Assembly (NCBI GenBank): GCA_963675785.1
Contig: OY776562.1
Span: 640,001 to 704,000, forward strand
Length of the DNA stretch: 64,000 nt
Source of the DNA: Anaerolineae bacterium
GTDB lineage: Bacteria > Chloroflexota > Anaerolineae > UBA1429
Direction of reading: 5' to 3'
Under the pieces are notes generated by a model. That model was not told the origin of the DNA, searched no databases, and was given only the letters and a program-made list of their open reading frames with translations. Of the stretch, positions 13,124-52,538 are shown one piece after another; positions within the stretch are counted from its first letter, which is position 1; every line of letters begins with the position of its first letter. Made by a program: the position numbers and the translations under genes.

Positions 13124-14839
13124 GTGAAAAAGACATTTGCACTTGTCGTTAGCTTGCTGGTCATTGCAAGCATGGTGCTGTCGGGCTGTTCGCAGCCCAC
13201 TGCCACCCCCGCTCCCACATCTGCCCCAGATCCGACGGCTACTACGGCCGCTGCGACCGCCGAGCCCGAAGCCACGGCAGTGTCGGAAGTTACTACTGAG
13301 CCAGAAGCTACCACAGAGGTCGTATCTGAACTTTTGTGGACTCCTGAGCTCTTGCAGGCTTTCTCTGCCGCAATTGACCGCGAAGAGCTGGTCGATCGCG
13401 TTTTTGAAGGCCGTAACACCCCGGCCTATTCCATGGTCCCCGAAGACTATCCGTATGCGACCGAGCCCTTCTTGGATGCCTACGGCGAGCGTGACCTGGA
13501 TTTGGCCATTGAGCTGTTGACAGACGCCGGTTACACGGCCGATGCCCCGCTCGAGATTGAGCTTTGGTACCCGCCCGAGCACTATGGCACCACCACTGCT
13601 GATGTGATGCAGGTCCTCAAAGAGCAGCTCGAAGAGACCGGTCTGATCCTGATTGACCTCTCGAGCCAGAACTGGGCTTCTTACGTCGATGCCTTTGTGG
13701 CCGGCGAAATGCCCGTGTTTATGCTTGGTTGGTTCCCCGATTTCGCAGACCCCGACAACTGGCTGACTCCGTTTGCCTCTTGCCTCCAGTCTCCGGATAA
13801 CGGTGTGAACTTTTGCGACGAGGAAATGGACGCTTTGTTGAACGCTGCTGCTTCTTCTTCGGATGCAGCCGAGCGTGAAGAGCTATATCAGCAGATCGGC
13901 GACCTCTATGCTGAACTAGTTCCTACACTTCCGCTGTTCTGGGAATCCGAGTATGTGACCTACCGTGACGGCGTTGAAGGTGTTGATATCGGCTCAACCT
14001 TTGAGTTCAACTATAACGTCCTGAGCTTTGCCGAGGACGCCATCCCCGCTTCCGGCAGCACAGATACCATCATCATCGGCACCACCGATGAGGTGCACAG
14101 CCTGGATGCAAACGATGCCTACGCCACCCATGACTGGGAAATCATCAAGAACACGGGTCGCCCCTTGTTGACCTATGCTCCTGGCGAGACTGAGCTCATC
14201 CCAGGTTTGGCTGAGGCCCTGCCCGAAGTGAGTGATGATGGCCTCACCTATACCTTTAAACTACGCGAAGGTCTGACCTTTGCCGATGGCACGCCCATCA
14301 CCGCTGATTCCTTTGTATACTCTTGGGATCGTCTCAACTCCCTCGAAGGCGAAGTCTCCGGTTTGGTGCAGGTTTACGTCGAAAGCGTCGAGGCTGTGGA
14401 TGACCTGACGGTGGCTTATCATCTCACCGGCACCTACGGTTTCTTCTCAGCATTGGCTGCAACTGCGCCGTTCGTTCCTGTAAACCCCAACACCTTCCCG
14501 GCTGACGAACTCGTTGGTTATCCTGAGACCATTGAGGGCTGTGGTCCGTACGTTATGACCTCCTTGGTTGCTGGTGAGCAGATGGTGCTTGAGGCGAACC
14601 CCGAGTACTTTGGCGACGATGCTGCCTTGATCCCCAACGTCATCATTCGTTACTATGCTGATCCGACGACCATGGCCAACGCTGTGGAAAGCGGCGAGAT
14701 CGACGTTGCCTGGCGTACGCTTGGCCCCGTTGAGGCAGTCCGCCTCTCTGAGGTCGAGGGTTTGAACGTGATTACGGTTGAAGCACCTTCGCTCCGTTAC
14801 CTTGTGTTCAACCATACGTACACTGTGCCTGCTGAATAG
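13124..14839 (+). CDS. Peptide/nickel ABC substrate-binding lipoprotein (family 5), circularly permuted
   Basis: Lipobox LSGC; QAFSAAIDREE half precedes the TIIIG..SLD..SDDGLTYTFKLREG..F.DG half. Confidence 0.9.
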   Translation: MKKTFALVVSLLVIASMVLSGCSQPTATPAPTSAPDPTATTAAATAEPEATAVSEVTTEPEATTEVVSELLWTPELLQAFSAAIDREELVDRVFEGRNTPAYSMVPEDYPYATEPFLDAYGERDLDLAIELLTDAGYTADAPLEIELWYPPEHYGTTTADVMQVLKEQLEETGLILIDLSSQNWASYVDAFVAGEMPVFMLGWFPDFADPDNWLTPFASCLQSPDNGVNFCDEEMDALLNAAASSSDAAEREELYQQIGDLYAELVPTLPLFWESEYVTYRDGVEGVDIGSTFEFNYNVLSFAEDAIPASGSTDTIIIGTTDEVHSLDANDAYATHDWEIIKNTGRPLLTYAPGETELIPGLAEALPEVSDDGLTYTFKLREGLTFADGTPITADSFVYSWDRLNSLEGEVSGLVQVYVESVEAVDDLTVAYHLTGTYGFFSALAATAPFVPVNPNTFPADELVGYPETIEGCGPYVMTSLVAGEQMVLEANPEYFGDDAALIPNVIIRYYADPTTMANAVESGEIDVAWRTLGPVEAVRLSEVEGLNVITVEAPSLRYLVFNHTYTVPAE

Positions 14840-14875
14840 CGGTTACCTTACCGCACCATTCACTGTTAGGACGTG

Positions 14876-14899
14876 GGGGGCGGTCGTAAGACTGCCCCC
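14876..14899 (+). other. Intra-operon stem-loop after the binding-protein gene
   Basis: GGGGGCGGTC-gtaa-GACTGCCCCC with no U-tail; probable mRNA stabiliser. Confidence 0.55.
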
Positions 14900-14925
14900 T
14901 TGCGTTATGGACTGGAGTTCCTTCT

Positions 14926-15948
14926 ATGTCGGCTTCTCTACGCAAGTTTCTGGTTGTGCGCATCCTTTTAACGATTCCTATGGTGATCATTCTGATCACA
15001 ATGGTCTTTTTTATCATGCGCGTGTTGCCAGGAGACCCTATACGTTCACAGCTTGGTCCCAAGGTATCAGAAGAGCAAGCAGAGGCGATGCGTGAACGCT
15101 TGGGCCTCAATAGGCCTTTATATGAGCAGTACTTTGATTTTCTTTGGGACACGATCCGGCTTGATTTTGGGACAGCGCTGACTTCAGGAGAGCGTCCCAT
15201 TGCGGATGAACTCGCTGAGCGGCTGCCCGCCACCATTGAACTGACTATTCCGGCCATGCTAATTACGGGTATTGCAGGCATAGGCCTTGGAGCATACGCA
15301 GCCAAGCACCGTAAACAGCCACAGGATTACATCATCCGTGCGGGAAGCATCGTTGTATATGCTATCCCCGTATTCTTTATGGGCTTGCTTTTTCAGATTT
15401 TGTTCGCGGTAAGAATCCCCATCCTGCCTCTTTCTGGGCGAATGGATACCATGATCCTCACTTCGTTCGAGTCAGTAACCGGCTTTTATGTCATCGATTC
15501 CATTATCACCGGAAACTGGCCCGCACTTTGGTCCGCCATCACCCATTTGATTATGCCCTCTGTAACGCTCAGTCTTGCTTTGACGGGGGTGTTTATTCGC
15601 CTAACGCGAGTAAACATGCTCGAAATGCTTCAGCAAGATTTCGTTACGGCTGGTCGTGCGCGTGGTATCCCCGAAAGACGCCTGGTGTACAAACACGCTC
15701 TGCGTAACACACTCATCCCCATTCTGACCATGTTTGGCATGCAGTTTGCTATTCTGCTTGCGGGTGCCACCCTTACAGAGACTACTTTTTCCTGGCCGGG
15801 CATTGGTCGTTATTTGGTTGAGAGAATCGAATTGCGTGACTATACCGCGGTTCAGGCTACGATCGCCGTCTTTGCTATGTTTGTTGCACTCATCAGTTTG
15901 TTAATGGATGTGGTCAACGCGTTCGTGGATCCCAGAATTCGCTACTAA
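14926..15948 (+). CDS. dppB: Peptide ABC transporter permease (DppB/OppB family)
   Basis: LPGDP, RLPATIEL, TAGRARG..Y.HALRN, ETTFSWPGIG, DPRIRY. Confidence 0.93.
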   Translation: MSASLRKFLVVRILLTIPMVIILITMVFFIMRVLPGDPIRSQLGPKVSEEQAEAMRERLGLNRPLYEQYFDFLWDTIRLDFGTALTSGERPIADELAERLPATIELTIPAMLITGIAGIGLGAYAAKHRKQPQDYIIRAGSIVVYAIPVFFMGLLFQILFAVRIPILPLSGRMDTMILTSFESVTGFYVIDSIITGNWPALWSAITHLIMPSVTLSLALTGVFIRLTRVNMLEMLQQDFVTAGRARGIPERRLVYKHALRNTLIPILTMFGMQFAILLAGATLTETTFSWPGIGRYLVERIELRDYTAVQATIAVFAMFVALISLLMDVVNAFVDPRIRY

Positions 15949-15968
15949 GTTGGAATGGATGGCAGAAG

Positions 15969-17222
15969 ATGAACCAGAAAAATAAAGATGCTGCATCTGT
16001 TCCCGAGTGGCAGCAAGATCTCGATAAAGTTGGTTTTGTACGCAAGCTGTTTATGGCTCGCAAGTGGTATGGTGGCGATTGGTGGTTTGTCGCCATTAGC
16101 GCCGTGTTGCTGTTCGGCGTTATTTTGCTAGGTGTCTTCCCCCAATGGTTCGCTCCATATGACCCCCGTGAAGAGGTTGGTGCTTCGCTCATGGCCCCCG
16201 GGCAGGAATCAGAGACATATGTTCTGGTGGTGCCGGAGGATTCCGAAGCCGAGTCTTTACGGGATGTAGGGCTCCGCGAGAATGCTCTGGGTTACACCAT
16301 GGGTACTCCAGCTAGCCAGTCGTTGCGCGATGCGCTGGATACCGCTACGGACGAAGACCAGGCCGCTGGTTTGGATGTTCGTTATCAGCCGCGCAAGACG
16401 CGTTATGAGACGCTCGAAGAGGGACTGGCTGCCTTGGAGGTGGGCGAGTTGGATGGCTATATCGTTTCCAACATCGTCTTTGAAGAGGTTGCAGATAACT
16501 ATTCGGGGTTACGCATTGTTGGCTCTATTAGCGATGTAGAAACGCCCCATTTTGTCTTGGGCACCAATCAGCTAGGCCAAGATGTTCTCAGTCGCACGAT
16601 CTGGGGTACCCGTATCGCATTGATCGTGGGACTTTGTTCGGCACTGGCCTCCATCGTTATTGGCGTGCCATTGGGGCTTGTCAGTGGCTTTGTCGGTGGT
16701 TGGGTGGATCGGGTACTGACTTTGGTGATGGATAGCCTTTATTCTTTCCCGGGGCTCATTCTGGCCATCGCTATCGCGGCTGTCCTTGGTTCAGGTATTG
16801 GCAACATCATTGTGGCTATCTCTGTGGTCTATGTGCCCACTTATTTCAGGGTTGTTCGCGGGCAAACGTTGTCTGTAAAAGAGGAACTCTATGTCGAGGC
16901 TGCTAAAAGTCTTGGCGCCACCTCTCGCGAGGTGCTCTGGAAGTATGTGTTCCCTAACGTTATCCCCTCCGTCGTCATCATCTTTAGCGTCAACGTGGCG
17001 GATGCGATACTTACAGAGGCAGGCCTGAGCTTCCTGGGATTCGGGTTACCCCCTGATGTTCCCGATTGGGGCATCGATCTGGCTCGTGGACAGGACTATA
17101 TTCGCCGGGCTTGGTGGCTTATTACAATACCTGGCGCCATGGTTAGCCTGGTGACACTCTCGTTCAGCATGCTCGGAGAAAGCCTCTCAGAGATTCTGAA
17201 CCCAAGATTGGCGGAGATTTAG
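15969..17222 (+). CDS. dppC: Peptide ABC transporter permease (DppC/OppC family) with a ~115 aa extracytoplasmic insertion
   Basis: APYDP..., LGTNQLGQDVLSR, YVEAAKSLGA (EAA loop), EAGLSFLG.G.PP..PDWG. Confidence 0.92.
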   Translation: MNQKNKDAASVPEWQQDLDKVGFVRKLFMARKWYGGDWWFVAISAVLLFGVILLGVFPQWFAPYDPREEVGASLMAPGQESETYVLVVPEDSEAESLRDVGLRENALGYTMGTPASQSLRDALDTATDEDQAAGLDVRYQPRKTRYETLEEGLAALEVGELDGYIVSNIVFEEVADNYSGLRIVGSISDVETPHFVLGTNQLGQDVLSRTIWGTRIALIVGLCSALASIVIGVPLGLVSGFVGGWVDRVLTLVMDSLYSFPGLILAIAIAAVLGSGIGNIIVAISVVYVPTYFRVVRGQTLSVKEELYVEAAKSLGATSREVLWKYVFPNVIPSVVIIFSVNVADAILTEAGLSFLGFGLPPDVPDWGIDLARGQDYIRRAWWLITIPGAMVSLVTLSFSMLGESLSEILNPRLAEI

Positions 17223-17225
17223 GCA

Positions 17226-18227
17226 ATGGCATCAGTCGTTACAGATACGTTGCCCCTTGTGCAGTTGCGCGATCTTTCCGTAACCTATCACACCCGTTTA
17301 GGCTCGGTGAGCGCCGTGGATGGTGTCTCTTTTGATATCCATCGCGGCGAGATTCTTGGCCTTGTGGGTGAAAGCGGTTGCGGCAAGAGCACTATGGGCA
17401 AGGCAATAATGCGCATGATCATGCCACCGGGAGAAATTTCGAGCGGCGAGATCGTCTTTGATGGTCAAGATATTATGCTCTACAACGACGACCAGATGCG
17501 TGATTTTCGTGGTCGACGTATGAGCATGATCTTTCAAGATCCCATGACTTCACTCAACCCCGTACAGCGCATCGATGAGCACCTTGTTGAGGCTTTACAG
17601 GTACATGAACCCAAAACGCCGCGCGAAGCGGCTTTGGAACGTGCTCGTGTGCTCGCAGAGCGTCTTGGTATTCGCCGTGACCGCTTGCAGAGTTATCCAC
17701 ATCAATTGTCGGGTGGCATGCGACAGCGTGTGATGGTTTCTTTGGGGTTGCTGCTGAACGCTTCTTTGGTAGTGGCTGATGAAGCGACGACTTCTCTCGA
17801 TGTGATCGTCGAGGCCAAGCTGATCGATGAATTAGTCCGCCTACGAGATGAGTTTGGTATCTCCATCCTCATGATTACCCATAATATCGCGTTGGTGGCA
17901 GAGGCGGCGGATCGTGTTGCTGTGATGTATGCCGGACGCGTGGTTGAGGTGGGCGGCGTGTACGAGGTGTTTGATACACCGCTCCATCCTTATACGAGCG
18001 GCCTGCTCTCTTCGGTCCCCAGCATTGCGCTGGATGACACCGAGGAGCTTTACAAAATGCCTGGTGAACCTCCCAATCTTACACATCCTCCTATGGGGTG
18101 CCGATTCCATCCGCGCTGCCCCAAGGCGTTACCGATCTGTTCTCAAAAGGCCCCAACACTGTTGGATCAGGGTGGTGGACATCTGGTGAACTGCTGGCTG
18201 TATCAATCGATCGAGCAGGAGGGCTAG
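17226..18227 (+). CDS. dppD: Peptide ABC transporter ATP-binding protein
   Basis: [31 protein letters not shown]-terminal GCRFHPRCP. Confidence 0.93.
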
Positions 18228-18229
18228 CA

Positions 18230-19240
18230 ATGACAGTGGATGTTCAAACGGCCACCGTTGACAATCTCGTCGAGGTTGATAACCTTCGGGTCTGGTTCCC
18301 AGTTCAGCATGGGATTTTTGAGACGCTCGTATCCGGGCACAAAGACTATGTACATGCTGTGGACGATGTCAGTTTTGATATTCGGCGCGGCGAGGTGTTC
18401 GGCCTGGCGGGCGAGAGTGGCAGTGGCAAAAGCACCACGGGTCGCGCCATCATTCGTCTTCTTGATCCAACGGCGGGCAAAATTAGCTTTGACGGGATTG
18501 ACATGCAGACGCTCTCTGCTGAAGAGCTGCGGCATCTGCGGCGCCGTATGCAAGTGATTTTTCAGGACCCCATGGCCTCGCTAAACCCACGCATGTCTCT
18601 TGGTGCATCAATAGCCCACCCGCTCCAAATACATTTTCCCGAGCAAAAGGCCAGGCACCATGAGATGGCCAGCGAAATGATGGAACACGTCGGATTATCG
18701 CCTTCTCGTTTTTACTATGACAAGTACCCCCACCAGATATCGGGTGGGCAGCGTCAAAGGGTAGTCATCGCCCGTGCGCTTATCACACACCCCGATCTGG
18801 TTATTGCTGATGAACCCATCGCTATGGCTGATGTAAGCGTGCGCGCCCTACTGCTCGACTTGATGATAAAGCTCAAGCAAGAGCTCAACCTCACGTATCT
18901 ATTCATTACCCATGACCTGGCAACGGCCAAATATATCTGTGACCGGTTGGGTGTCATGTATTTGGGCAAGATGTGTGAGATGGGGAACCTAAAAGATGTG
19001 TACGGTGAACCCCTACACCCGTATACGCGGGCATTGTTGGCTGCTGTGCCGGTTCCTGATCCCCATCGACGCCGCACGGAGGCCATGCCAGAGGGTGAGA
19101 TTCCCAACGCAATTCATCCACCAAAGGGTTGCAGATATCATCCACGCTGCCCGCTGGCACAGCCTATCTGTTCGCAGCAGGATCCAGAGTTGCGTGAGCT
19201 GCGCCCCGGCCATTTTGTGGCTTGCCATTTGGCGCGCTAG
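18230..19240 (+). CDS. dppF: Peptide ABC transporter ATP-binding protein
   Basis: GESGSGKS, YPHQISGGQRQR, GCRYHPRCP..VACH; start MTVDV after AGGAGG. Confidence 0.93.
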   Translation: MTVDVQTATVDNLVEVDNLRVWFPVQHGIFETLVSGHKDYVHAVDDVSFDIRRGEVFGLAGESGSGKSTTGRAIIRLLDPTAGKISFDGIDMQTLSAEELRHLRRRMQVIFQDPMASLNPRMSLGASIAHPLQIHFPEQKARHHEMASEMMEHVGLSPSRFYYDKYPHQISGGQRQRVVIARALITHPDLVIADEPIAMADVSVRALLLDLMIKLKQELNLTYLFITHDLATAKYICDRLGVMYLGKMCEMGNLKDVYGEPLHPYTRALLAAVPVPDPHRRRTEAMPEGEIPNAIHPPKGCRYHPRCPLAQPICSQQDPELRELRPGHFVACHLAR

Positions 19241-20527: not shown

Positions 20528-20566
20528 AAAACAGGGGCCGCGCACATCGTGCGCGGCCCCTGTTTT
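20528..20566. terminator. Bidirectional intrinsic terminator
   Basis: Perfect 18 bp inverted repeat AAAACAGGGGCCGCGCAC-atc-GTGCGCGGCCCCTGTTTT. Confidence 0.9.
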
Positions 20567-23500
20567 AATTGTAGATGAGGGGAAAGCGCATTCTGGGGGG
20601 TAACGCGCTGCTAGTGAGTGTGACGCTCCGTTCTTGAGTTGGAGCGAGTGATGACTGAATCGTAAGTGTGCATGTATCAGTATCGCGCCAGTCTGCTGTT
20701 GCAGGTACGCTCACACTTACACGAATGATCGTCGATTCACCGGGGGATAGAGGCCCCACCAATGAAGGTGCTGTTACCGACCAGGTGTTTCCGGCAATTG
20801 AGATGACATAATAATCGCTCGATTGCCCTGTATTCGTTAATAAAATACTATGAACGGCTGTCTCGCGGACATAGCCTTCTGCGCTATTGGTGCTAGCGCT
20901 ATTAAAGCTGATACTGCCAGTTGTAGAGGCTACCGTCATGGTGATAGGAACCCACACCTGCGGCTGTAAAGGATCGTTGGTATTGATCGCAATAGCTGCA
21001 TGATAGGTACCGATTCCCTCTGTCGCAGTGGCATCGAGGGTGAGCGTGACAGTAGCTTCTTCGCCGGGGGCAACCACGCCCGATGTCGGGCTAGCACTGA
21101 GCCAATCGCTGTTACTGTCGAAGGCCCCCACATAACAGCGCTCCACCGTACTATAGATAGTTTGTCCATCGGCGCTTTGCCCACCGATGGCATAGAAATA
21201 ACCGTCGCCAGCGATTGCCCCTTCGAGATACCCCCTGGCCTGGTTCAAAGTTGGTAACGTGGGAGACACCGTCCATGTATTGCTCTCCACAGAGTACAAG
21301 GCCATGTCGTCTGACTCTCCCAGACTGCTGCTTCTGGGGCCGCCGGCAAGCCACAGGCCATCTACACCGACCCCATCAGCCATATAGCTCCAACGGGTAA
21401 GGGTGCTGCTATCGCTGGGCACCGAGGCGCCATAGCTCCATGAGGAACCATTCCATAGTTCTGTAGTGAGCAGCGGTGCCAAGCTGGAGATGATTCCGGT
21501 GACGCCACCGGCTGCAACAAGTGTGTCATCCACCCAACCTGCTGCAAAACCCAAGCGAACGGCAGTCATACTGGAACTTTGAGCCCAGATTCCTGTTGTG
21601 GTGTCCAGTATCCATACTTCATTAGTCAGGCTAGAGCCATCCAAACCACCGAGCACATAGACGTTGCTTCCTTTTACGGCGGTGGCATACTCCCATCGCG
21701 CACTGTAACCATTGTTCGCCGTAACGATTGTCCAGACATTCTGAAACGTATCATACACACAGGTTGTACCCGAGTCGGCATCTCCGGGGATGTAGATATG
21801 CCCGGCAATAACGGCAGCATCTGCTCCGTCAAGGGTGATCGGTGCGGATCCCAACTCTGTCCACGCATTGCTGGCGATATCATAGCAATACGTGGTGTTG
21901 GTCTTTTCTCCTGCTGCATTGCTACCACCGATCACATAGACCTTTTGGCCCACGGCGGCGATGGCGGGGCGTGTTCGTCCCTCGGGCAGGGAGGCCACGA
22001 CTTGCCAGGAATCGCCAGTTTCGGCAATAGTGTTCCCTATTACTTGCGCCTCGGCTGAGGAGAGCGTTTCAATAGCCGCCAGAACATCTTCGGAGAGCGG
22101 CTCAGTCAATCGCTCCGTCCGTATGCCGGTACTGGCCAGGCCGTTGCTGCCCAGATCTTGCTCGACGATCTCGTATTCAAGGTTAGTGGTCCCCTCATTG
22201 GCGATGCGCAGGGGATAGGTGAGTTGCTGGGATGTTGCGACCACGGCAGTGTAGCTGGTGGCGGTAATGACTGCCCGCGGCGCGCCCAACACAAAGTTGA
22301 CCTCTTGCGTAGTACCAGTGCTCATGTAGATGGACGAACTAGCGGTGTCATAATAAGGTGACGTAGCCTGGATGGTGGCGCAGCCTGTAGGGGTGAACAA
22401 GGTGTAAAAGCCATCATCTATATTCACGTCTGCCGTAGCGGCGGTTACCGTCAGGTAACCGCTCAGGTTACTGACTTTGGCATCGGCTAGGGGGGCGTCG
22501 GTGTCGATCGCGTACACTTGGCCCACCACCAAACCACCGCTGGTGCGCTTACAGGCCGAATCTCCAGCAAAGACGTGCACATCGTCGATCTGCCAGTACC
22601 AGTCATCATTGGCCCCATAATAGTGAAAACGCACCATCACCTGCGGTTGACCTGCAGCGATGCTGGAAATGTCGATTTCCTGAGCGTTGGGGCCGAGCAC
22701 ATCCTGCCCTTGAAGGCGATAGACGTTGATCCATGTGTATCCATTGTTGATGCTTACATCTACGTCAGCAATTTCGGTTTGCAAGTGCCTGAAGGATTGT
22801 TTGAAGGAGAGTGTTACCTTGCTGGTGCTGCTCATGTCATAGACGGGGCTGCGCAAGATAGTGTTGATGGTCGTGGCACCAGCATAGTCACTGTCGATGA
22901 TGGCAAAGCCACCCGTACCACCCGTTTCGTTATCCCGCTCACCTGGATCATCAAAACGCCAGGTGGCGCCAGTACCGGTTGAGATCCAATTAGAGGGCAG
23001 CGTTGTGCTGTCAAAAGTCTCAACGGTATCTTTGAACGAGGTTCCGGGCGCAGTGCACTCAGCGCAGGGGTAAAGGCCATAGGTGACCATGGAATCGGCG
23101 CTGGGCGCAGTAAAGCTGGTCGAGTAGGTGCGGTATCCGTCTACATAGGCTTCTATCTGGAAATCACACTCGGCCTGCTCCGGAATGTCAACGGCAAAGG
23201 TTCCCTCTACGGGGTCAGTCCAAACGATGTCCGACTGTACAGTACCCTCTTGATCTGTGAACTGGTAGGTAACACGTGTATAAAGTGGCCAGCTTGTCTC
23301 TGCATCAATAATTTTTCCTGAAAGGGTATAGGTTTCCAGTGGATCAAGCAGGAAGTTGAGCGTTTCGCTGGCGCCAGCGCCAATGGTTAGCGGATAGGAG
23401 ATGCTTTCGTAGCCATAAGCAGAAAGCGAAAGGGTGTAGGTCCCCGGCCAAATGGCTAGCGTGTAATTACCGGATGAATTCGTGCGTGCGGAAATGTCAT

Positions 23501-25157
23501 AGTTATCGTTGGTGGCCTGTATTTTGGCCTGCGAGATGGGAGCCCCTGTGGTCTGGTCGGTGATCTGGCCCTGCAATGTGGAATCGCCGCAATAGTCCCG
23601 AGCGGCCTCTACGGCGGCGGCGGCATCGATCTCACCCCACCCTGTCGTGTTATTCGGGTATTGGCCGTCCGGGTAAGAAGAACAGGATGCGGGTAAGCCG
23701 TTGGTTACGGCGTTTGCCGTCTGCTCCAAGAGATTCTCAGTGGTGGCGTAATCCCCAATCAAACAAGGGGCTGCCTGCCACATCAACGCGATGAGTCCGG
23801 ACACGTGTGGTGCTGCCATGGAGGTGCCGGTCAAAGAACGTAGCGAGGTATCGTTTAGATAGCTGGCTGAAAGAATGCTCGTACCCGGCGCGACCACCTG
23901 TGGCTTGAGATATGGATACCCCGATGGATTGACCGTATCAGCTTGGTCGCTGGGGCCTCGCACAGAGTAGGTAGCATAGATGCTACCGGTCTTGCTGGTG
24001 GCCCCTACGGCGGTCACGTTGCCATAGCGCGCTGGGTTCCCCACCGTCTCGCAGGCCTGGGTTGTGGTCGAAGAGCCATTGCCAGCCGAAAACACAGGGT
24101 AGATGCCGGCAGCCTGCCAGCTATCTATAGCATTTTGGAACCAATCGTCATAACTGCGCACAGTACCATTGCCATCTCCCCAAGAGTTGTTGACGATGTT
24201 CGGTCTGAGGTCCGGGTCAGCATCGAGGCCATCGGTGGTAGTGGGCGCCAGGACGAATTCGGCACATTCCAGCAGATCGGCTTCTTCACAGGTGGTGCCA
24301 GTGCAGCCTTTGCAGCCAATCCATTCGGCACCAGTGGCCATACCAATGATGTCTGTATCGCTGCTGCCAACCATAATACCCATGGTGTGTGTACCGTGTC
24401 CCTGGGTATCGGTCGGTTCATCATAGCTGGTGGTGGTGGCGTCGTACCAGTCATAGTCATGATCAAAAACACCGTTGCCTTCGTTGCCGCGATAGTTATC
24501 GACGAGCGTTTGATGGGTATAGCGTACTCCCGTGTCAATATTGGCCACCACGATGCCGCTACCATCGATGCCTTGAGCCCATACTTCAGGAGCGTTTACC
24601 TCATCAAGGTTTGGCTGTACGGTGGCCGTGCTCGATGTACTGATGCTGTCTGCTTCTATTGCCTCTTCTTCTACCTCGGGGATGGTAGCGATGTGCTGCG
24701 GCTCGATGGATTCAATCTCGCCGTAACATAGCAGGCCGTCAAAGTTGGTCACACTCATCCCCTCGACATAAATCGAGTTATTGATCCAAAACGAAGTGTG
24801 CTCGGTTCCAGTTTGGATGAGGTATTTGATGAGGGTGCTTTGATCGGAAAGGGTTTGAGCGCAAAGTTGTTCATACACATACTCGCCCCTCTCGATCCAG
24901 TCCATTTCATAAGCGGCCGAGAGTTCGGCTGTATCACGCATATAAATCATAAAGGAGGGCGAATCGCCAGCGGATACCTCTGCATAGAGTTCAGCATCGA
25001 CGAGGATACCCGTATCGGTGAGGAGCATGGGTGTAGTGCCATCGTCCGCAAGCGTTTGCGCGACCACGGTGCCGTAGGTGTTGTTGCCAGAAATGACAAC
25101 ACACATGACGGCGATGATGACCAGGCCGATGATCAGACGTCGCAACGATGCCCGCAA
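20565..25157 (-). CDS. Secreted S8 subtilisin-like protease (bacillopeptidase F-like) with carboxypeptidase-regulatory-like, adhesin-like, Kelch and Ig-like domains
   Basis: Catalytic triad IDTG / HGTHTMG / GTSMAAPHV; Kelch repeats (VYVIGG, YVLGG, YAIGG); signal peptide; TTG start after GGGAGG. Confidence 0.92.
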   Translation of the reverse strand: MRASLRRLIIGLVIIAVMCVVISGNNTYGTVVAQTLADDGTTPMLLTDTGILVDAELYAEVSAGDSPSFMIYMRDTAELSAAYEMDWIERGEYVYEQLCAQTLSDQSTLIKYLIQTGTEHTSFWINNSIYVEGMSVTNFDGLLCYGEIESIEPQHIATIPEVEEEAIEADSISTSSTATVQPNLDEVNAPEVWAQGIDGSGIVVANIDTGVRYTHQTLVDNYRGNEGNGVFDHDYDWYDATTTSYDEPTDTQGHGTHTMGIMVGSSDTDIIGMATGAEWIGCKGCTGTTCEEADLLECAEFVLAPTTTDGLDADPDLRPNIVNNSWGDGNGTVRSYDDWFQNAIDSWQAAGIYPVFSAGNGSSTTTQACETVGNPARYGNVTAVGATSKTGSIYATYSVRGPSDQADTVNPSGYPYLKPQVVAPGTSILSASYLNDTSLRSLTGTSMAAPHVSGLIALMWQAAPCLIGDYATTENLLEQTANAVTNGLPASCSSYPDGQYPNNTTGWGEIDAAAAVEAARDYCGDSTLQGQITDQTTGAPISQAKIQATNDNYDISARTNSSGNYTLAIWPGTYTLSLSAYGYESISYPLTIGAGASETLNFLLDPLETYTLSGKIIDAETSWPLYTRVTYQFTDQEGTVQSDIVWTDPVEGTFAVDIPEQAECDFQIEAYVDGYRTYSTSFTAPSADSMVTYGLYPCAECTAPGTSFKDTVETFDSTTLPSNWISTGTGATWRFDDPGERDNETGGTGGFAIIDSDYAGATTINTILRSPVYDMSSTSKVTLSFKQSFRHLQTEIADVDVSINNGYTWINVYRLQGQDVLGPNAQEIDISSIAAGQPQVMVRFHYYGANDDWYWQIDDVHVFAGDSACKRTSGGLVVGQVYAIDTDAPLADAKVSNLSGYLTVTAATADVNIDDGFYTLFTPTGCATIQATSPYYDTASSSIYMSTGTTQEVNFVLGAPRAVITATSYTAVVATSQQLTYPLRIANEGTTNLEYEIVEQDLGSNGLASTGIRTERLTEPLSEDVLAAIETLSSAEAQVIGNTIAETGDSWQVVASLPEGRTRPAIAAVGQKVYVIGGSNAAGEKTNTTYCYDIASNAWTELGSAPITLDGADAAVIAGHIYIPGDADSGTTCVYDTFQNVWTIVTANNGYSARWEYATAVKGSNVYVLGGLDGSSLTNEVWILDTTTGIWAQSSSMTAVRLGFAAGWVDDTLVAAGGVTGIISSLAPLLTTELWNGSSWSYGASVPSDSSTLTRWSYMADGVGVDGLWLAGGPRSSSLGESDDMALYSVESNTWTVSPTLPTLNQARGYLEGAIAGDGYFYAIGGQSADGQTIYSTVERCYVGAFDSNSDWLSASPTSGVVAPGEEATVTLTLDATATEGIGTYHAAIAINTNDPLQPQVWVPITMTVASTTGSISFNSASTNSAEGYVRETAVHSILLTNTGQSSDYYVISIAGNTWSVTAPSLVGPLSPGESTIIRVSVSVPATADWRDTDTCTLTIQSSLAPTQERSVTLTSSALPPRMRFPLIYN

Positions 25158-26097: not shown

Positions 26098-27630
26098 TTA
26101 TGTTTTCTCATCTTTTTCCTGCGCTTTTGCACGTTGCATTTGTTCAAGTTCATCAATCTCTGCCATATATTTCGCCGCACAGTCGGGGCACAAGCCGTGT
26201 GTAAACTCGGCTTCCGAGTGCTCAGAGAAGTAAAGCTCGACTTCTTGCCAGTATCCGGCATCTGTGCGGATTTTCTTGCACGAGGCACAGATAGGCAAGA
26301 GACCACCTAGGGTTCGAACCTGAGTAAGCGCTCTTTGGAGCTCTTCAATAAGGTGACGACGTTCTTCTTCGGCTCGTTTACGGATAATAGCCTCAACAAA
26401 GGCTGTCGTCAAGGTTTCAGCATCGCTTTGATCTTGCTCACTATAGGGATCGGGCTTGTTAGCTAGCACCAGTCGCCCAAAGGTAAGCCCTTCATTGCGC
26501 AGTTCGAGAGACATGATACGAGCGATGGGCAGCGATTCCTTATTGGATAATTCAACCTGAAGAGTGGGAGATCCAGACACGATTTTCGAGAGTCTATCGC
26601 CTGAATCCAGGCCTATACCCTGATCTTGGAGTTGCTGGCAAAAGGCAGCATCGATATACATGCCAGGTTCTTCATCTGCAAAGGCAGTAAGTGCCACCTG
26701 ACTATCGAGTTGGATACAGGACACTTGGCTGCCAGTAATGCGCAATGCGAGCTGAACAAAGATCTCGGCAATGGCTTGCTCATTATTATCCATAATAGTG
26801 CCACGAAAGATCTGGTTGATGGCATCGAGCAGGGCTCGCTGTCGAGCGATTTTTTCGTCGGCGGCATGACGAGCTGTCACATCCTCTACACTGCCTTCGA
26901 TATGTACGCCCTTGTTACTTTCCGACACTACCGTTGCTGTTGCCCGTATCCAGGCCTGGCTTCCATCGCCGCGTACAAGGCAAAGCTCGCTTTCATCTAC
27001 GGGTTTTTCAGTCCTGAGAATATTCTGCCAGATTTGTGCCAAGTTACCGATGGCAAAGCGGTAAATCTCTGTGCCAATAAGGTCTTCTCGACTGACGCCG
27101 AGTATCTGAGCAAGCGCCTCATTAGCCGATAGAATGACGCCGTCCAGATTGAGGCTGTAAAGGCCGATGGGCATACTTTCGAACAGAGCGCGATACCGGG
27201 CTTCAGATACTTCAAGGGCGGCTTCGGCCAGTTGTTTCTCTTTGGCAACGCGCTCAGATTCGAGTACGTGGGCGAGTACTGTGGGGAGCAGATCCAGATA
27301 TCCACCGTCTACGTCTTTGATGAGATAATCACCGACGCCGAGCTTGAGTGCCTCAACCGCGAGGCTTTCATTGCCACTGCCTGTGATCATCACCATAGGC
27401 GGGGGAGCTGTTCCGGCCTTGAGGATTTGAACGACCTCCAGCCCATCTTTGCCGGGCATGTTATGATCAATAGCGACGAGGTCATAGTCACCTTCGCTGT
27501 ACATGCGGAGGCCTTCATCGCCATTCGACGCAATACTCACCTCATAGCCTGCACGTTTAAGACGCCGTTGCGCAAGTCGCGCAAGGCCGGCATCATCTTC
27601 CATGTACAGAACTCGGATGGGTTGTGTCAC
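26098..27630 (-). CDS. Response regulator: REC-PAS-GAF plus C-terminal Cys-rich domain
   Basis: MEDD..DHNMP..DYLIK receiver; PAS; ends in PICASCKKIR..W..THGLCPDC. Confidence 0.88.
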   Translation of the reverse strand: MTQPIRVLYMEDDAGLARLAQRRLKRAGYEVSIASNGDEGLRMYSEGDYDLVAIDHNMPGKDGLEVVQILKAGTAPPPMVMITGSGNESLAVEALKLGVGDYLIKDVDGGYLDLLPTVLAHVLESERVAKEKQLAEAALEVSEARYRALFESMPIGLYSLNLDGVILSANEALAQILGVSREDLIGTEIYRFAIGNLAQIWQNILRTEKPVDESELCLVRGDGSQAWIRATATVVSESNKGVHIEGSVEDVTARHAADEKIARQRALLDAINQIFRGTIMDNNEQAIAEIFVQLALRITGSQVSCIQLDSQVALTAFADEEPGMYIDAAFCQQLQDQGIGLDSGDRLSKIVSGSPTLQVELSNKESLPIARIMSLELRNEGLTFGRLVLANKPDPYSEQDQSDAETLTTAFVEAIIRKRAEEERRHLIEELQRALTQVRTLGGLLPICASCKKIRTDAGYWQEVELYFSEHSEAEFTHGLCPDCAAKYMAEIDELEQMQRAKAQEKDEKT

Positions 27631-28085
27631 GGATCTACACTTTCGGAGGGCACCTGAATCACACTGAGAAATAATCCCAGCTTGCGTATTGCCTCTGTAA
27701 AAGCAGTATACTCTACGGGCTTGGTAACGTAAACATTACATCCCATTTCGTAGCAGCGTTGAATCTCACGACGCTCATCGGTCGTGGTTAGAACGATGAT
27801 AGGGATATTATGGGTTAGTGGTTCGCTCTTGAGTTTCTCAATGACATGGTAACCGTCCATAACGGGCATGTTGAGATCCAGCAAGATGAGCAGCTGATTC
27901 GCTCGCTTGTGTCCCATAAAATCACCGCGCCCAAAGCAATAGTCCAGGGCCACTTGCCCGTCGGTCGCATGGATGATGTCATTGGCGATTCCCGCTCGGC
28001 GCAAGTTTTTCTCAATGAGTCTGGCGTGTCCAGGATCATCTTCGGCTAGCAAAATGGTCACTTGAGAACCTTCCATCACTATCAC
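27627..28085 (-). CDS. Single-domain response regulator (Rcp1-like)
   Basis: LLAEDD, LLDLNMP, CYEMGCNVYVTKP. Confidence 0.92.
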   Translation of the reverse strand: MIVMEGSQVTILLAEDDPGHARLIEKNLRRAGIANDIIHATDGQVALDYCFGRGDFMGHKRANQLLILLDLNMPVMDGYHVIEKLKSEPLTHNIPIIVLTTTDERREIQRCYEMGCNVYVTKPVEYTAFTEAIRKLGLFLSVIQVPSESVDP

Positions 28086-31000
28086 CTCATGTCCTTTGGA
28101 AGCGAGAAACTAAAAGTCGAACCGACATTCAACTCTGACTCAAACCATAACTCGCCCCCATGACGTCTTACCAGGGCCTGAACGTAGGGCAACCCCATGC
28201 CTTCACCGGGCACATCTTGGCGCCCTACTCTTCTGAATGGTGCAAAAACGTTAGCAAAGTCTTCCTCGGCAATACCCACCCCGTTGTCGTGAATATGGAA
28301 TATCCAATATCCATTCTCTTCTTCTGCTGAGATATCGATTTGAGCGGAACGGTCGTCCGAGAGGTACTTGACTGCATTGCCGATCAAATTGCCCAACACT
28401 TGCTGCATGGATGTATGATCGGCTTGCACAACTGGCAAATCACCGACAGTAACCTGTCCTTTGTGTTCAGCGATCTGATGACTCACTACAGCAACGGCAT
28501 CATCCACCGCCAGGCGCATATCCACGGGTTCTATCAAGAGTTCTCGCCGGCCCATTCTGGAAAGCTGAAGGAGTGCGTTGACCATATCATCCATGTTCCC
28601 AACAGCCCGCTCGATGAAACTGAGCGATTCAGGAATATCGTCATTCAAAATCGTGGATAGTTCATCTCGTTCTTCTTCATCCAGCTTTGCAAGGGCTTCC
28701 TGAACAGCGGGCTCGAGATCATGGATAGAGTATCGCAATTCCTGGGCAAACCCCTTGAGATTCACCAGGGGTGCGCGCAGGTCATGGGAGACAATATATG
28801 TGAACTGTCTCAATTCGTCGTTAGCACGTCGAACTTCTTCGGAGGATTGTTCCAACTGTTTGACGAACTCGACACGTTCAGAAATATCGGTGACTGACAT
28901 GGCTGTGAACAAGGGCTTGCCGTTGTCATCGCGAACCATAGCCCCGTTTAACATAACGGGGAAGGTTGATCCATCTTTGCGCATGTGAACAAGATCGTCT
29001 CTTGAAAAGTTGCCTTTGGTGAGGAGCAGCTTTCTGCATTCCTCCAGAGCTTGATGTTGTGTGACAGGGAAATAGGCTTCAACCGAAAGGCCTATTGCCT
29101 CCTCAGATGTATAACCATGAATATGCGCACAATATTTGTTGACATAGACAGTATGCCAATCAAGGTCAAGGATGCAGACGCCATAATTTGCTGTTTCTGC
29201 CAGCGTTAAAAATTTGAGCAACTCCGCCTCATAGGCATGGCGGCTAAGAGCACTAGAGAGGGTGTCGGCTACGAGTCGGAGGGGTTTGTCTCCATCTATG
29301 CCCCACACATAGGGTTCATTGATATTACAGAAGGCGACTATGCCAGATTCGCCGGTTTTGGATTGCAACGGCAAGGCGATAATCGATTCGATGCCATGAT
29401 CGCCGAGATACTTTTTAAGGCCAGCATCCATTTCAGTTTCGCGCATTCTTTCGATCGTTATCATAGACTGGGATTGTAACTGCCCTCTTAACCAAGAGTT
29501 ATTGGTTAACACTTGCCCGATATCTGTATGCTGTATTATGTCTCCAGTAGTTACAATCTGGACGCCGATCTTATTTTTACCGTTTAATTGTGCTAAAATC
29601 ACGGCAGAATCCGCTTTGATGAACTTGGCTACGGTTAGAAGCGTTTCTTTCACGGAGCTTTCAAAGTTCTCGAAAGAACTGCCCAACAGTTTGCCAAATT
29701 GCTCACTCCGAATTCGCTCAAACTGCGTATGGTATGCCAGAGCCTGCAGGGTCTCTTTTTCATTGGTGATATCATAAAGAACGCCATTGACTCGGATTTT
29801 TTCGTCTTCCCCTGGGGCTTGCTGTCCCATGGCGTGCACCCATCGATACTGGTCTTTGCCATTCCTGACGCGAAACTCTTCTGAATACCAGCTGGAAAGT
29901 CCGGTGAGGTGGCATTCCATGGCGTCCAGAATACGTGCCTGATCTTCAGGATGAACAAGGCTAATAAGACTGCGGCCAATCAGGGGATCTTGGACGTATC
30001 CCAAAAGTTCGAGCGAATAACTGTCCAGCGTATAAAGACCCGTCTCCGGATCAAACTCCCACGTTCCCAGGTTGGCACCCTGTAATGCCAGGTTCAGTCT
30101 TTGTTCGCTTTTCTCTCGGATTCGCTGAGCCTTGCGAAATTCGGTGATATCTCGACCGGATGACAATGTGCCGATGATCGTGCCCTCAGGTCGCCGTACG
30201 ATGCTGTGCTTCCAGGCAATGAGCCGGTTTTCGCCCGAGCGTGTGGTGATCAGGTTTTCTGTTTCTTGATCTAGTCCGGCCTCTAGGCGTATCGCCGCCT
30301 GGAAAATCTGATCAACGGCTCTCACTTGTTCGTCAGGGATGAAACTCATCCAATCCAGACCAACAAGTTCTTGAGGTGAGGCATAACCGAGTATCTGCGC
30401 GCCGGTACGATTGATCATGAGAATGTGGTGATTCTGGTCAAGGGCCAGGATGATCTCTGCGGCAACATCGAGGTAGCGCTGAGATCTGTCGCGTTCCTCC
30501 TCGATCTGTTCTTCGTAACGGTGTTGTTCTCTCAACGTGACGCTAGATCCTATAGCGAGCAGAAACACCATAACAGCCGAGATGCTAATGCTGATGAGGA
30601 GGACACTGCTTGAGGCGCTATCTCCGATGAAATCAAAAGCGGAGGGAATACGCTCACCGATTATGATGAGGTTGGTGCCTTCAATAGGGATGCCAGTAAC
30701 ATGAACTTGAACCTCGTCAGTGCGTGTCAAGTCCAACTGGGCTATATCTCCATCAAGCAAATTTTGGAATGACTCTTGGGACGTATAGCGGTTGTAGAGG
30801 GGATTATCTATAGATTCTGTAGATGAAGTGATTAACTCTATTACGGTTTCGCCAGAGTTTGTCGCAATCCAGACGTTTTCAAGATCAGACAGACTGTCAC
30901 CTAACGGTCCTGTCAGAAAGGCTGGGTCTGCCAGGGCAAAACTTGTTTGATCAGAGGCTAGGTAATCTGTAATGAGTAAATACATGTCCCCATCTACTTC

Positions 31001-31408
31001 CAGCCCCACTATTTGGTCAGTCGTTTGCCAGGTGATTGCGCTCTGAAGCTCGGCAATCGAGGCTGAGATACCCTGCGGGTCATCCGTTCGGGAGATTTGT
31101 TGGATACTCCCGGATACCTGATTGTAAGCGCCCACAACCAGAGCCCAAGGAAGTCGACGCAAAGCTTGGCTCGTGTCTCCAAAGGACAAACTGGCTTCCT
31201 GTTCATCAAGTTGGATGACCATAAGTCGAACTTGCAGTTCGACGAGATTGGCCGCAGCTTGAAGCTGAGTTGCTTGCAGTTCATCAGTGCTTTGCGCCTG
31301 TTGCGTTTCCAAAGAAGGAACGAGCAATAAAAACTCGAGTGCCAGGGTGATTAACAATACAGCAAGATAGAGCCCAATGAAATTTGGCCGCTTGCTCCTC
31401 TTCTTCAT
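28082..31408 (-). CDS. Membrane multi-PAS/GAF sensor histidine kinase
   Basis: Two TM segments, three PAS, GAF, SHDLRAPL, NLIGNAVKY, DNGVG, GEGMGL. Confidence 0.93.
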   Translation of the reverse strand: MKKRSKRPNFIGLYLAVLLITLALEFLLLVPSLETQQAQSTDELQATQLQAAANLVELQVRLMVIQLDEQEASLSFGDTSQALRRLPWALVVGAYNQVSGSIQQISRTDDPQGISASIAELQSAITWQTTDQIVGLEVDGDMYLLITDYLASDQTSFALADPAFLTGPLGDSLSDLENVWIATNSGETVIELITSSTESIDNPLYNRYTSQESFQNLLDGDIAQLDLTRTDEVQVHVTGIPIEGTNLIIIGERIPSAFDFIGDSASSSVLLISISISAVMVFLLAIGSSVTLREQHRYEEQIEEERDRSQRYLDVAAEIILALDQNHHILMINRTGAQILGYASPQELVGLDWMSFIPDEQVRAVDQIFQAAIRLEAGLDQETENLITTRSGENRLIAWKHSIVRRPEGTIIGTLSSGRDITEFRKAQRIREKSEQRLNLALQGANLGTWEFDPETGLYTLDSYSLELLGYVQDPLIGRSLISLVHPEDQARILDAMECHLTGLSSWYSEEFRVRNGKDQYRWVHAMGQQAPGEDEKIRVNGVLYDITNEKETLQALAYHTQFERIRSEQFGKLLGSSFENFESSVKETLLTVAKFIKADSAVILAQLNGKNKIGVQIVTTGDIIQHTDIGQVLTNNSWLRGQLQSQSMITIERMRETEMDAGLKKYLGDHGIESIIALPLQSKTGESGIVAFCNINEPYVWGIDGDKPLRLVADTLSSALSRHAYEAELLKFLTLAETANYGVCILDLDWHTVYVNKYCAHIHGYTSEEAIGLSVEAYFPVTQHQALEECRKLLLTKGNFSRDDLVHMRKDGSTFPVMLNGAMVRDDNGKPLFTAMSVTDISERVEFVKQLEQSSEEVRRANDELRQFTYIVSHDLRAPLVNLKGFAQELRYSIHDLEPAVQEALAKLDEEERDELSTILNDDIPESLSFIERAVGNMDDMVNALLQLSRMGRRELLIEPVDMRLAVDDAVAVVSHQIAEHKGQVTVGDLPVVQADHTSMQQVLGNLIGNAVKYLSDDRSAQIDISAEEENGYWIFHIHDNGVGIAEEDFANVFAPFRRVGRQDVPGEGMGLPYVQALVRRHGGELWFESELNVGSTFSFSLPKDMR

Positions 31409-33926: not shown

Positions 33927-34949
33927 TTACCGATAGCTAATCCGAACGTTGCTGTTCTGGAGGGTATCCCTGATCAGAGAAGCGAGTTCAGCCATATGTT
34001 GCGGCGATGGGGCTTTTATGTCATCTAGCAAATAGTCTTGCCCAAGTCGGGTGCGTTTCTCTACGCCCAGCTTGTGGTATCCCAATAGTTCGACCGCCTG
34101 TACCGCCGGAAGCATATTTTCTTGAACAAAATGGGCAGTCGAAGAGATATTTTCCTCGCTATCATTGATGCCAGGAATGATGGGGATGCGAATCCAGATG
34201 CCCTCGTTTTCATCCCGGGCATTAGCCCTCTCGCTGGCTAACCGCGTAGCGTTCTCCAAGATGCTCTTGTTAGAGACGCCCGTATACCGTCTGTGTTGTT
34301 CGTCATCCATGTGCTTGAGATCCAACAGCACGAGGTCAGCGCTGGTGCTGACTTGGTGCAAGCGTTCCCAAGGGCCAAAGCCCGTTGTGTCGAGGGCGGT
34401 GTGGATACCATTCGCCTGGCACATGATGAGCAGATTTTGGGCAAAGTCAGCCTGATAAAGCGGCTCGCCCCCCGTAATCGTAACACCCCCGCCAGAAGCG
34501 GTGTAAAAGGCGCGATCCAGCGCAATCTGGTCAAAAACATGCCGAACGCTCATCTCTTTGCCGACGAATTCCAAGGCTTGTGCATAACATACATCGGCGC
34601 AGGCGCCACAACGCTGACATAGGTCGATGTTATAACAACGGCGAATGCTGGCGATTTGCTCACTCTGCACCTGGGCATCGCGCGCCAGGCGTTCCCCATT
34701 GGCATCCTCAAACCACAGCGCCTCGGTGGGGCAGGCGCGGTAACAGGCCAGGTCGGCGATACAGCGGCTGGCATAGTACATTAGCTCTGGCCGAGGATCG
34801 ATGGATTCTGGGTTATGGCACCAGGCGCAATGTAGATAGCAGCCTTTTAAGAAAACTGCCGTACGAATGCCCGGCCCATCATGTGTGGCTGAACGTTCGA
34901 TATCAAAGACGATGCCCCGCATCTGCGATTGGTAATGGCTTGTCGTCAT
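33927..34949 (-). CDS. Glycyl-radical enzyme activating protein (radical SAM, with ferredoxin-like insert)
   Basis: HDGPGIRT.VFLKGC.LHCAWCHNPES, GGVTITGGEP; overlaps the GRE stop (ATGA). Confidence 0.95.
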   Translation of the reverse strand: MTTSHYQSQMRGIVFDIERSATHDGPGIRTAVFLKGCYLHCAWCHNPESIDPRPELMYYASRCIADLACYRACPTEALWFEDANGERLARDAQVQSEQIASIRRCYNIDLCQRCGACADVCYAQALEFVGKEMSVRHVFDQIALDRAFYTASGGGVTITGGEPLYQADFAQNLLIMCQANGIHTALDTTGFGPWERLHQVSTSADLVLLDLKHMDDEQHRRYTGVSNKSILENATRLASERANARDENEGIWIRIPIIPGINDSEENISSTAHFVQENMLPAVQAVELLGYHKLGVEKRTRLGQDYLLDDIKAPSPQHMAELASLIRDTLQNSNVRISYR

Positions 34950-52518: not shown

Positions 52519-52538
52519 TCTCAGGTGTCCTGTGTGAA

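Follow-up and report, generated by a model that had tools for sequence, protein, structure and literature searches.

The first structures of complete Dpp/Opp-type peptide importers date from 2024-2025, and the structural reports describe the stretch between the first two transmembrane helices (TM1 and TM2) of the permeases as a periplasmic loop, P1, which in DppB forms a 'scoop' that enters the cleft of the substrate-binding protein (SBP) and which in DppC is short (PMC10954201, PMC12136057). Type-I ATP-binding cassette (ABC) importers are a textbook system. How they recruit the SBP to the translocator and keep it there varies from one organism to another, and for the peptide transporters the answer is still emerging. 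Here, we describe an operon of this kind in a 64,000-nucleotide stretch of an Anaerolineae genome (contig OY776562.1, positions 640,001 to 704,000; this whole stretch is called the window, and coordinates are counted from its first letter). Its DppC/OppC-type permease carries about 115 additional amino acids (aa) in P1, and its SBP is circularly permuted. The insert is present and conserved at the same position in orthologous permeases, where it co-occurs with the permuted SBP. Its predicted fold is that of a single lobe of a binding protein from a different family, and it could serve as a docking domain for the permuted SBP.

A first-pass annotation of the window, made from the letters alone, had noticed about 115 residues between two DppC motifs that are usually only a few residues apart, and these residues are indeed present (aa 79-195). 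The translation of positions 16200-16547 (+), GQESETYVLVVPEDSEAESLRDV...LGYTMGTPASQSL...RYETLEEGLAALEVGELDGYIVSN...LRIVGS, is in frame with the 417-aa open reading frame (ORF) 15969-17222. A phmmer alignment with Escherichia coli DppC (PDB 8z1v_B, E 8.8e-49) pairs query residues 45-78 with chain residues 36-69 and query residues 196-415 with chain residues 80-299, leaving 117 residues in the window DppC where E. coli DppC has 10. The TM1 part of this alignment is weak (12.7 bits), and TM1 (aa 38-61) is helical in both AlphaFold2 (AF2) models of the protein; the insert sits between this helix and the conserved FxLGTNQxGQD motif. P1 is interrupted by the insert, unlike the contiguous region covered by the Pfam family OppC_N (PF12911), in which TM1 is followed by a short P1, and OppC_N is undetected in the window DppC.

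The nearest relatives that truly lack the insert are three proteins of 287 aa with 57-58% overall identity (P0160, P0186 and P0171), which read PPGGEFILGT where the window DppC reads APG[116 aa]HFVLGT; OppC_N is precomputed for two of them (P0160 and P0186), which are listed with this domain and BPD_transp_1 (PF00528). They are the three truly insert-less proteins among 12 aligned relatives from a search with the membrane domain only; most of what this search returned were fragments, or gene calls in which a protein with the insert had lost its N-terminus. Its short entries (221-389 aa) may in many cases be fragments or have truncated starts. Public gene calls of this DppC family sometimes start at an internal methionine inside the insert and lose TM1; the entry P0105 (307 aa) is without the upstream part that the same ORF has in locus L028 (on a 42294-base contig), and the overlapping stretch that was compared matches.

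The DppC family is widespread in Anaerolineae, with 325 relatives found in a scan of one genome per species, in which the closest genomes all belonged to this class. The best 80 of these loci were examined, and the insert was found in every one (68 by the exact distance between the motifs and 12 by inspection), including those of the cultured Longilinea arvoryzae, Ornatilinea apprima and Anaerolinea thermolimosa. An assembly artefact or chimera is ruled out by its presence in all 80 loci, and a mobile element or intein is ruled out for an insert that is in frame, folded, located between conserved permease motifs and without a matching family. In a comparison of 81 sequences the insert is 114-122 aa long. 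It is the part of DppC that varies most and diverges fastest, with a mean identity to the window DppC of 40%, whereas the membrane domain reaches 83% and the N-terminus with TM1 66%. Five residues are invariant in these sequences (G108, R120, R142, R145 and F195), and a further five are kept in at least 93% of them (Q117, Y139, Q140, P141 and G159).

The high variability would be in line with a decaying, functionless remnant of a once-fused binding domain, and so would the facts that only half a domain is present and that its family-level sequence signatures are lost. However, such a remnant is scarcely credible for an element that is retained in 80 of 80 species-level genomes (the best 80 of 325) at 114-122 aa, without frameshifts and with invariant residues, and that is predicted to fold confidently.

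A word-index search with DppC residues 70-200 yielded 28 proteins at E <=0.01, namely the window's own, 26 others of 417-432 aa in which the whole region is covered, and one partial entry of 296 aa; the named entries among them are Anaerolineales. A tblastn search for the insert in 72,556 plasmids gave no match. An exhaustive profile search revealed more divergent DppC proteins that share the N-terminal motif and carry the insert (P0044, P0046, P0049, P0052, P0055, P0063 and P0066), and the insert is found at the same place also in P0161, P0175, P0152 and P0157. These divergent proteins have LRLRPRIDRY, IRPDISRY or a similar motif instead of VRYQPRxxRY. All of these entries are fragments or N-truncated, and two of them (P0152 and P0157) are labelled Actinobacteria by their source. 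The feature is thus probably wider than the 80 loci.

The AF2 model of the whole DppC, calculated with a 24-sequence alignment, has a mean predicted local distance difference test (pLDDT) score of only 54.7, with values below 50 in the membrane part, and a single-sequence model was unusable (mean pLDDT 42.7). In the insert (aa 80-190) the pLDDT is 80-89, and the model has five beta strands in alternation with four helices (strands 84-89, 106-110, 142-146, 163-167 and 181-186; helices 97-100, 115-132, 149-158 and 168-177). In a Foldseek search against the PDB, ranks 1-9 were DppC/OppC chains, and all 32 rows listed for ranks 10-50 were type-II binding-protein folds, as the first-pass annotation had expected of such a check. 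These rows comprise amino-acid SBPs, SBD1 and SBD2 of GlnPQ, ArgBP, ArtJ, SsuA, PtxB, SocA and, at rank 50, HisG, which we take to have this fold; their E-values range from 5e-5 to 8e-4 over 104-160 columns with 12-23% identity (for example, 4ymx_A: E 8.3e-5, root-mean-square deviation 2.4, 111 columns). Similarity to type-II folds was found, and the region is predicted to be ordered rather than disordered.

Sequence profiles point in the same direction. A profile built from 39 inserts matched, as its best hit among PDB sequences, AncQR (E 3e-4), with insert positions 15-104 aligned to AncQR residues 106-180, its small lobe. Of the 43 PDB matches at E <=10, 39 were family-3 SBPs, glutamate-receptor ligand domains, BvgS/EvgS sensors or MltF, while three were unrelated and one was unclear. 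In the alignment, 'iGyvvGspasqalR' of the insert is paired with 'vGVQLGSTSEQHVK' of AncQR, which equates GTPASQSLR with the G-S/T-T ligand loop of family-3 SBPs, and the 'Y..xxEaxxaLxxGxxDa' helix of the small lobe is covered as well. In family-3 SBPs, an Asp of the small lobe binds the alpha-amino group of the ligand; the insert position after 'GExDgfV', which is aligned with the Asp of AncQR 'DAVVTD', is variable (S, N, E, A or G). The insert aligns to 75-111 residues of targets that are 212-260 aa long, it has no second lobe or hinge, and membrane segments flank it on both sides.

Against 1.84 billion representative sequences the insert profile gave 49 matches at E <=1e-3, of which 13 were scanned with Pfam and 12 were read as sequence, two proteins (P0032 and P0044) being in both sets. 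The 13 scanned proteins comprise five with multiple SBP_bac_3 domains, four giant proteins with cadherin repeats, two methylases and two members of the insert's own family. Searches with the insert by itself were less productive. Pfam found no family at E <=10 in the 116-aa window insert, and the only match of a 137-aa piece was Phosphonate-bd (E 0.054). Among the 39 inserts, SBP_bac_3 (PF00497) was found in one (E 0.16) and Phosphonate-bd in four (best E 1e-4, under its 27-bit cut-off), and none of them reached a Pfam gathering score. NCBIfam returned no family for the insert, phmmer with the single insert gave no match at E <=10 against PDB sequences, and a search of the ESM Atlas with residues 76-196 gave a best score of 0.75 to unnamed clusters and no lead.

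The similarity of the insert to family-3 SBPs at the level of the letters is therefore marginal when taken alone. It is the combination of the type-II folds found by Foldseek, the AncQR match (E 3e-4) and the matches to proteins with multiple SBP_bac_3 domains that bears out the resemblance to a family-3 small lobe seen in the first-pass annotation, and its proposal that a single lobe of another SBP family lies in the extracytoplasmic loop of DppC is supported by three independent computations. From these models we conclude that the insert is distantly homologous to the contiguous small lobe of a family-3-type SBP, or at the least mimics its structure closely. Lacking the second lobe and the hinge, it falls outside SBP_bac_3 as that family is defined.

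Giant cadherin-repeat/RTX proteins (P0041, P0047, P0048 and P0056) match the insert profile with E-values down to 3e-19, in 8-19 short stretches each, which is probably an artefact of repeats or composition; these giants and the two DNA methylases (P0073 and P0078) were regarded as repeat or compositional matches and set aside. Positions 23-104 of ABC2_membrane_3 (PF12698) weakly match 12 of the 39 inserts (L024, L026, L037, L044, L076 and others; best E 0.0022), and a triple SBP_bac_3 protein (P0054) matches this segment of the model with 40.9 bits. The extracytoplasmic domain of ABC2_membrane_3 exporters may also contain a binding-protein-like lobe.

The second unusual protein of the operon is the SBP. 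It has an SBP_bac_5 domain (E 2.4e-75) in permuted order, with aa 357-565 on profile positions 1-209, and in the alignment with the structure 5isu, query residues 315-565 correspond to chain residues 19-266 and query residues 71-276 to chain residues 270-470. Judged from its sequence, it is a natural circular permutant of a family-5 SBP. The lipobox Cys22 is followed by an acidic linker rich in Pro, Thr, Glu and Ala up to about aa 68, then by the canonical domain III, and the canonical N-terminal half comes last; the first folded element of the mature protein is the helix AIDREELVDRVFEGRN. By the domain boundaries of OppA, the new ends would lie at the crossover from domain I to domain III. 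The permuted SBP accompanies the insert-bearing DppC, with the halves in permuted order, in all 67 loci with enough upstream DNA for both halves, and 62 orthologous ORFs have the lipobox and linker. A search with residues 240-400, which span the permutation junction, gave 1179 proteins; coverage of these residues is 91-100% in the best 120.

Two of these best 120 relatives of the permuted SBP, P0239 (801 aa) and P0246 (810 aa), contain a complete SBP_bac_3 domain (aa 56-271 and 66-299, respectively). In both it is placed after the lipobox and ahead of the permuted family-5 body, right before the helix that is predicted to contact the insert. Family-3 modules are thus linked to this kind of transporter a second time. 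The insert aligns weakly to the small lobe of these fused domains (hhalign E 0.0013 and 0.017). The fusions would favour a role of the insert as a receptor for another partner, for example a family-3 domain that docks on it or completes a two-lobed module with it, so that family-3 lobes would contact one another and couple the peptide transporter to amino-acid sensing or uptake. However, the other 118 relatives have no precomputed SBP_bac_3 domain, none of the 62 orthologous SBP ORFs is longer than 592 aa, the SBP of the window is devoid of such a domain, and the similarity of the insert to the fused domains is weak, all of which makes a receptor of this type very improbable.

A complex of the mature SBP (31-row alignment) and the insert (39-row alignment) was predicted in three runs, together with three controls. 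The score was 0.64 (0.65, 0.61 and 0.64 in the individual runs), compared with 0.00 for the best of the three controls; the score mark is reached by 116 of 157 solved complexes and by 2 of 215 mismatched pairs, counts that apply only roughly here, since the alignments were our own. At least 91% of the contacts are shared between the runs, and the pLDDT of the partner is at least 85. To our knowledge, there is no solved structure of such a complex that the model could have drawn on. The prediction supports binding of the SBP by the insert but does not show it. The first-pass annotation had offered two roles for the lobe, and one of them, a docking site for the permuted SBP, has gained in silico support from this complex (0.64 versus 0.00 for the controls), whereas the other, a second ligand site, has gained none.

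The predicted interface comprises ten residues of the insert (R103, M111, G112, S116, Q117, R120, R138, Q140, K143 and R145) and 11 residues of the SBP (E87, E88, D91, E95, G96, R97, P100 and G121-D124), and the contact surface of the SBP begins directly after the new N-terminus that was created by the permutation. The contacts would pair conserved arginines with conserved glutamates and aspartates, in that the conserved Q117, R120 and R145 of the insert face the invariant E87, D91 and E95 of the SBP in the model. Seven of the 11 SBP residues are invariant in the 31-sequence alignment. On the side of the insert, four of the six polar residues that are kept in at least 90% of the sequences belong to the predicted interface (Q117, R120, Q140 and R145, but not Y139 and R142), and the mean conservation is 0.75 in the interface versus 0.58 in the rest (permutation p 0.014). 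According to the AncQR alignment, the predicted interface is the former cleft face of the lobe, formed by the G-S/T-T loop and by the strand that precedes the 'ETLEEGLxAL' helix.

In another reading, the former cleft face would provide a second ligand site, or the lobe would act as a sensor. The arginine-rich surface, by itself or against another surface, would then bind a small anionic or amino-acid-like ligand, and the lobe would pass it to the translocator or gate transport. The predicted fold is that of a ligand-binding lobe, the conserved residues lie in the loop equivalent to the family-3 G-S/T-T ligand loop, and the three invariant arginines would suit a carboxylate or a phosphate. Nevertheless, this function is quite improbable, considering that there is one lobe only and hence no closable cleft, that the position of the Asp that binds the alpha-amino group is variable, that no family-3 Pfam threshold is reached, and that the same conserved residues are explained by the predicted protein-protein interface.

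Alternatively, the lobe might serve structure or assembly, with no specific binding to the SBP, for instance as a buttress between DppB and DppC, a contact for the scoop loop, or a spacer in the cell envelope of filamentous Chloroflexota. It sits in a loop whose DppB counterpart is described as a mobile periplasmic motif (PMC10954201, PMC12136057), and it evolves much faster than the membrane domain (40% versus 83% identity), as accessory domains often do. A purely structural role is nonetheless unlikely, as the invariant polar residues on the surface, which in the complex model meet acidic SBP residues that are likewise invariant, point to a specific partner, and as all three controls of the complex prediction scored 0.00.

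Taken together, the insert could well be a built-in docking domain of DppC for the permuted SBP, a reading based on models that we hold with about half of full confidence. In P1, the first periplasmic loop, DppC would have gained a domain of about 115 aa that amounts to an isolated copy of the small lobe of a type-II (family-3-like) periplasmic binding protein. Because the second lobe is absent, the lone lobe would be unable to close on a ligand as a binding protein does. Instead, its former ligand-cleft face (Q117, R120 and R145, the G-T-x-x-S-Q loop and RYQPRxxRY) would act as an arginine clamp on the acidic helix of the SBP (E87, D91 and E95). The SBP is cut at the crossover from domain I to domain III, and therefore the lipid anchor, the flexible linker and the new N-terminus would adjoin the helix in the clamp. 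Domain III, the canonical C-lobe of the SBP, would be kept by the arm on the DppC side of the translocator, beside the lipid anchor, so that the SBP would stay pre-docked, as in systems with fused (GlnPQ, OpuA) or tightly bound (mycobacterial Dpp/Opp) receptors. We infer this retention or pre-docking role, and its link to the permutation, from the features described above.

Several points weigh against a docking domain. Both the fold and the interface are outputs of models, and the AF2 model of the whole DppC is poor (mean pLDDT 54.7), which makes the placement of the arm, with respect to both the translocator and a docked SBP, tentative; its geometry may not permit productive docking. Insert and permutation co-occur within one orthologous operon family, and this co-occurrence is not independent evidence of functional coupling. 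The motif AIDRE of the SBP helix is common to many ordinary family-5 SBPs (for example, 5isu), and therefore its conservation is partly structural. The invariant R142 lies outside the predicted interface. Finally, a single covarying pair emerged, SBP E88 (13385-13387) and DppC K143 (16395-16397), which are close in the predicted interface. Position 88 is acidic chiefly in loci with K or R at position 143; of 54 paired loci, three have both the acidic and the basic residue, two only the acidic one, one only the basic one and 48 neither; this covariation is probably a single-clade pattern.

A more far-reaching version of the docking proposal, which we consider doubtful, would treat the permutation and the half-lobe as one innovation: the cut at the hinge crossing would free the helix of domain III, the former cleft of a family-3 half-lobe would grip this helix, and the result would be a receptor that is permanently docked in trans. 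One lobe of the SBP would then be fixed to the translocator, and only the other lobe would move.

The remaining genes of the operon (13124-19240, all on the + strand; Table 1) are those of a five-gene ABC importer of the Dpp/Opp type, which belongs to the peptide/nickel/opine family, as shown by ORF and Pfam analyses, with the gene order SBP, DppB, DppC and two ATPases with C-terminal oligo_HPY domains. DppB residues 7-340 align with residues 3-337 of the E. coli chain 8z1v_A (E 7e-68) without a large gap; the protein, with its TM1-TM2 'scoop' region, is canonical and collinear with its E. coli counterpart, and therefore the novelty is confined to DppC and the SBP. The longest ORF of DppF begins with a GTG at 18098 and would overlap dppD by 130 bases; the ATG at 18230, directly after the dppD stop at 18227, is more likely the start. 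None of the substrate-specific NCBIfam equivalogs (DppC, OppC, NikC, GsiD, CntC and others) is above its curated cut-off with the DppC among the best 25 of 33 matches; the best match is Opp2C (230.8 bits versus a cut-off of 300), and these best 25 matches cover only aa 179-415.

Table 1. Coordinates of the transporter genes and of the features discussed in the text (positions in the window)
Feature	Position	Strand	Basis
Family-5 (cluster C) substrate-binding lipoprotein, circularly permuted, 571 aa	13124..14839	+	Pfam SBP_bac_5 in 2 stretches
Predicted contact surface of the SBP, aa 87-124, helix AIDREELVDRVFEGRN and loop GERD	13382..13495	+	Complex prediction
DppB permease, canonical	14926..15948	+	Pfam BPD_transp_1, BPD_transp_1_N
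DppC/OppC-type permease carrying the insert, 417 aa	15969..17222	+	Pfam BPD_transp_1 aa 232-414, E 7.8e-29
TM1 of DppC, aa 38-61, WWFVAISAVLLFGVILLGVFPQWF, before the insert	16080..16151	+	Alignment to E. coli DppC 36-69
Insert, DppC aa 79-195, predicted single lobe in periplasmic loop P1 (TM1-TM2)	16203..16553	+	AF2, Foldseek, profile match
GTPASQSLR, insert aa 112-120, with G112, S116, Q117 and invariant R120 of the predicted interface	16302..16328	+	AncQR alignment
RYQPRKTRY, aa 138-146, most conserved insert motif, with R138, Q140, K143 and R145 in the predicted interface	16380..16406	+	
DppD ATPase	17226..18227	+	Pfam ABC_tran, oligo_HPY
DppF ATPase	18230..19240	+	Pfam ABC_tran, oligo_HPY

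The rest of the 64 kb is ordinary chromosomal DNA that encodes, for example, UvrA, a major facilitator superfamily transporter, an S8 protease, PAS histidine kinases, a glycyl-radical enzyme and a photolyase. At 20565-25157 (-), 1.3 kb downstream of the transporter operon, lies the gene of a secreted-looking protein of 1530 aa with subtilase (S8), CarboxypepD_reg and Kelch beta-propeller regions; it is a matter of speculation that this protein could supply peptides to the transporter. Two dense clusters (26098-33204 (-) and 48212-57836) encode PAS/GAF histidine kinases, hybrid kinases and response regulators, and one kinase in each (31405-33204 and 54891-57836) has a HisKA_7TM seven-transmembrane sensor. 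A PFL-like glycyl-radical enzyme (34946-37195) adjoins a radical-SAM activase (33927-34949) and an aldehyde:ferredoxin oxidoreductase (37258-39165), all on the - strand, a group that is consistent with an anaerobic lifestyle.

A search of the open-access full-text literature yielded no description of an internally inserted half-lobe together with a permuted cluster-C SBP. If the proposed function is correct, this transporter would have a permease with its own folded docking arm, the arm would be derived from half of an unrelated SBP, and the receptor would be a natural circular permutant. It would be a tractable model for the retention of SBPs and for the effect of hinge topology on the Venus-flytrap cycle.

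The system is a member of the Dpp/Opp importer kind, and it shares with the canonical DppBCDF/OppBCDF systems (E. coli DppABCDF, M. tuberculosis DppABCD and OppABCD) the operon order and a homologous membrane domain. Canonical systems combine a short P1 of DppC with a large periplasmic scoop on DppB (PMC10954201, PMC12136057), whereas here P1 of DppC contains a predicted folded domain of about 115 aa and the SBP is permuted. One lobe of family-3 SBPs (HisJ/GlnH/ArtJ/ArgBP, SBD1 and SBD2 of GlnPQ), and likewise of SsuA and PtxB, superposes on the predicted fold of the insert. In contrast to family-3 SBPs, the insert is single-lobed and hinge-less, has no Pfam-level membership and does not conserve the position of the alpha-amino Asp, and it is embedded in a permease loop, whereas family-3 SBPs occur free, on a lipid anchor or fused to a terminus.

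There is also a hint of a binding-protein-like lobe close to the N-terminus of the permeases of another ABC family. The positions of ABC2_membrane_3 that resemble the insert (23-104 of 347) are near the start of the model, in a region that presumably follows TM1, although all of these matches are below the gathering score. However, this family consists of exporters with a different membrane fold, whereas the DppC described here is an importer permease.

With respect to the proposed function, the insert can be compared with the P2 domain of MalF, a large periplasmic loop domain of a type-I importer permease that holds the binding protein on the translocator. MalF P2 is situated between TM3 and TM4 and has an immunoglobulin-like fold; the likeness is in the proposed role of holding the SBP, while the insert differs in its location between TM1 and TM2 and in its predicted fold, that of a binding-protein lobe. 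GlnPQ and OpuA likewise have a module with a binding-protein fold in the permease polypeptide, and one of the matches of the insert profile is a GlnP-like protein with four SBP_bac_3 domains and BPD_transp_1 (P0059). In GlnPQ and OpuA complete two-lobed ligand-binding domains are fused terminally, whereas here half a domain is internal and the receptor is a separate family-5 lipoprotein. Should the more far-reaching version of the docking proposal hold, a ligand cleft would have been converted into a protein-protein clamp, and the transporter would be a natural non-covalent counterpart of the ABC importers with fused receptors.

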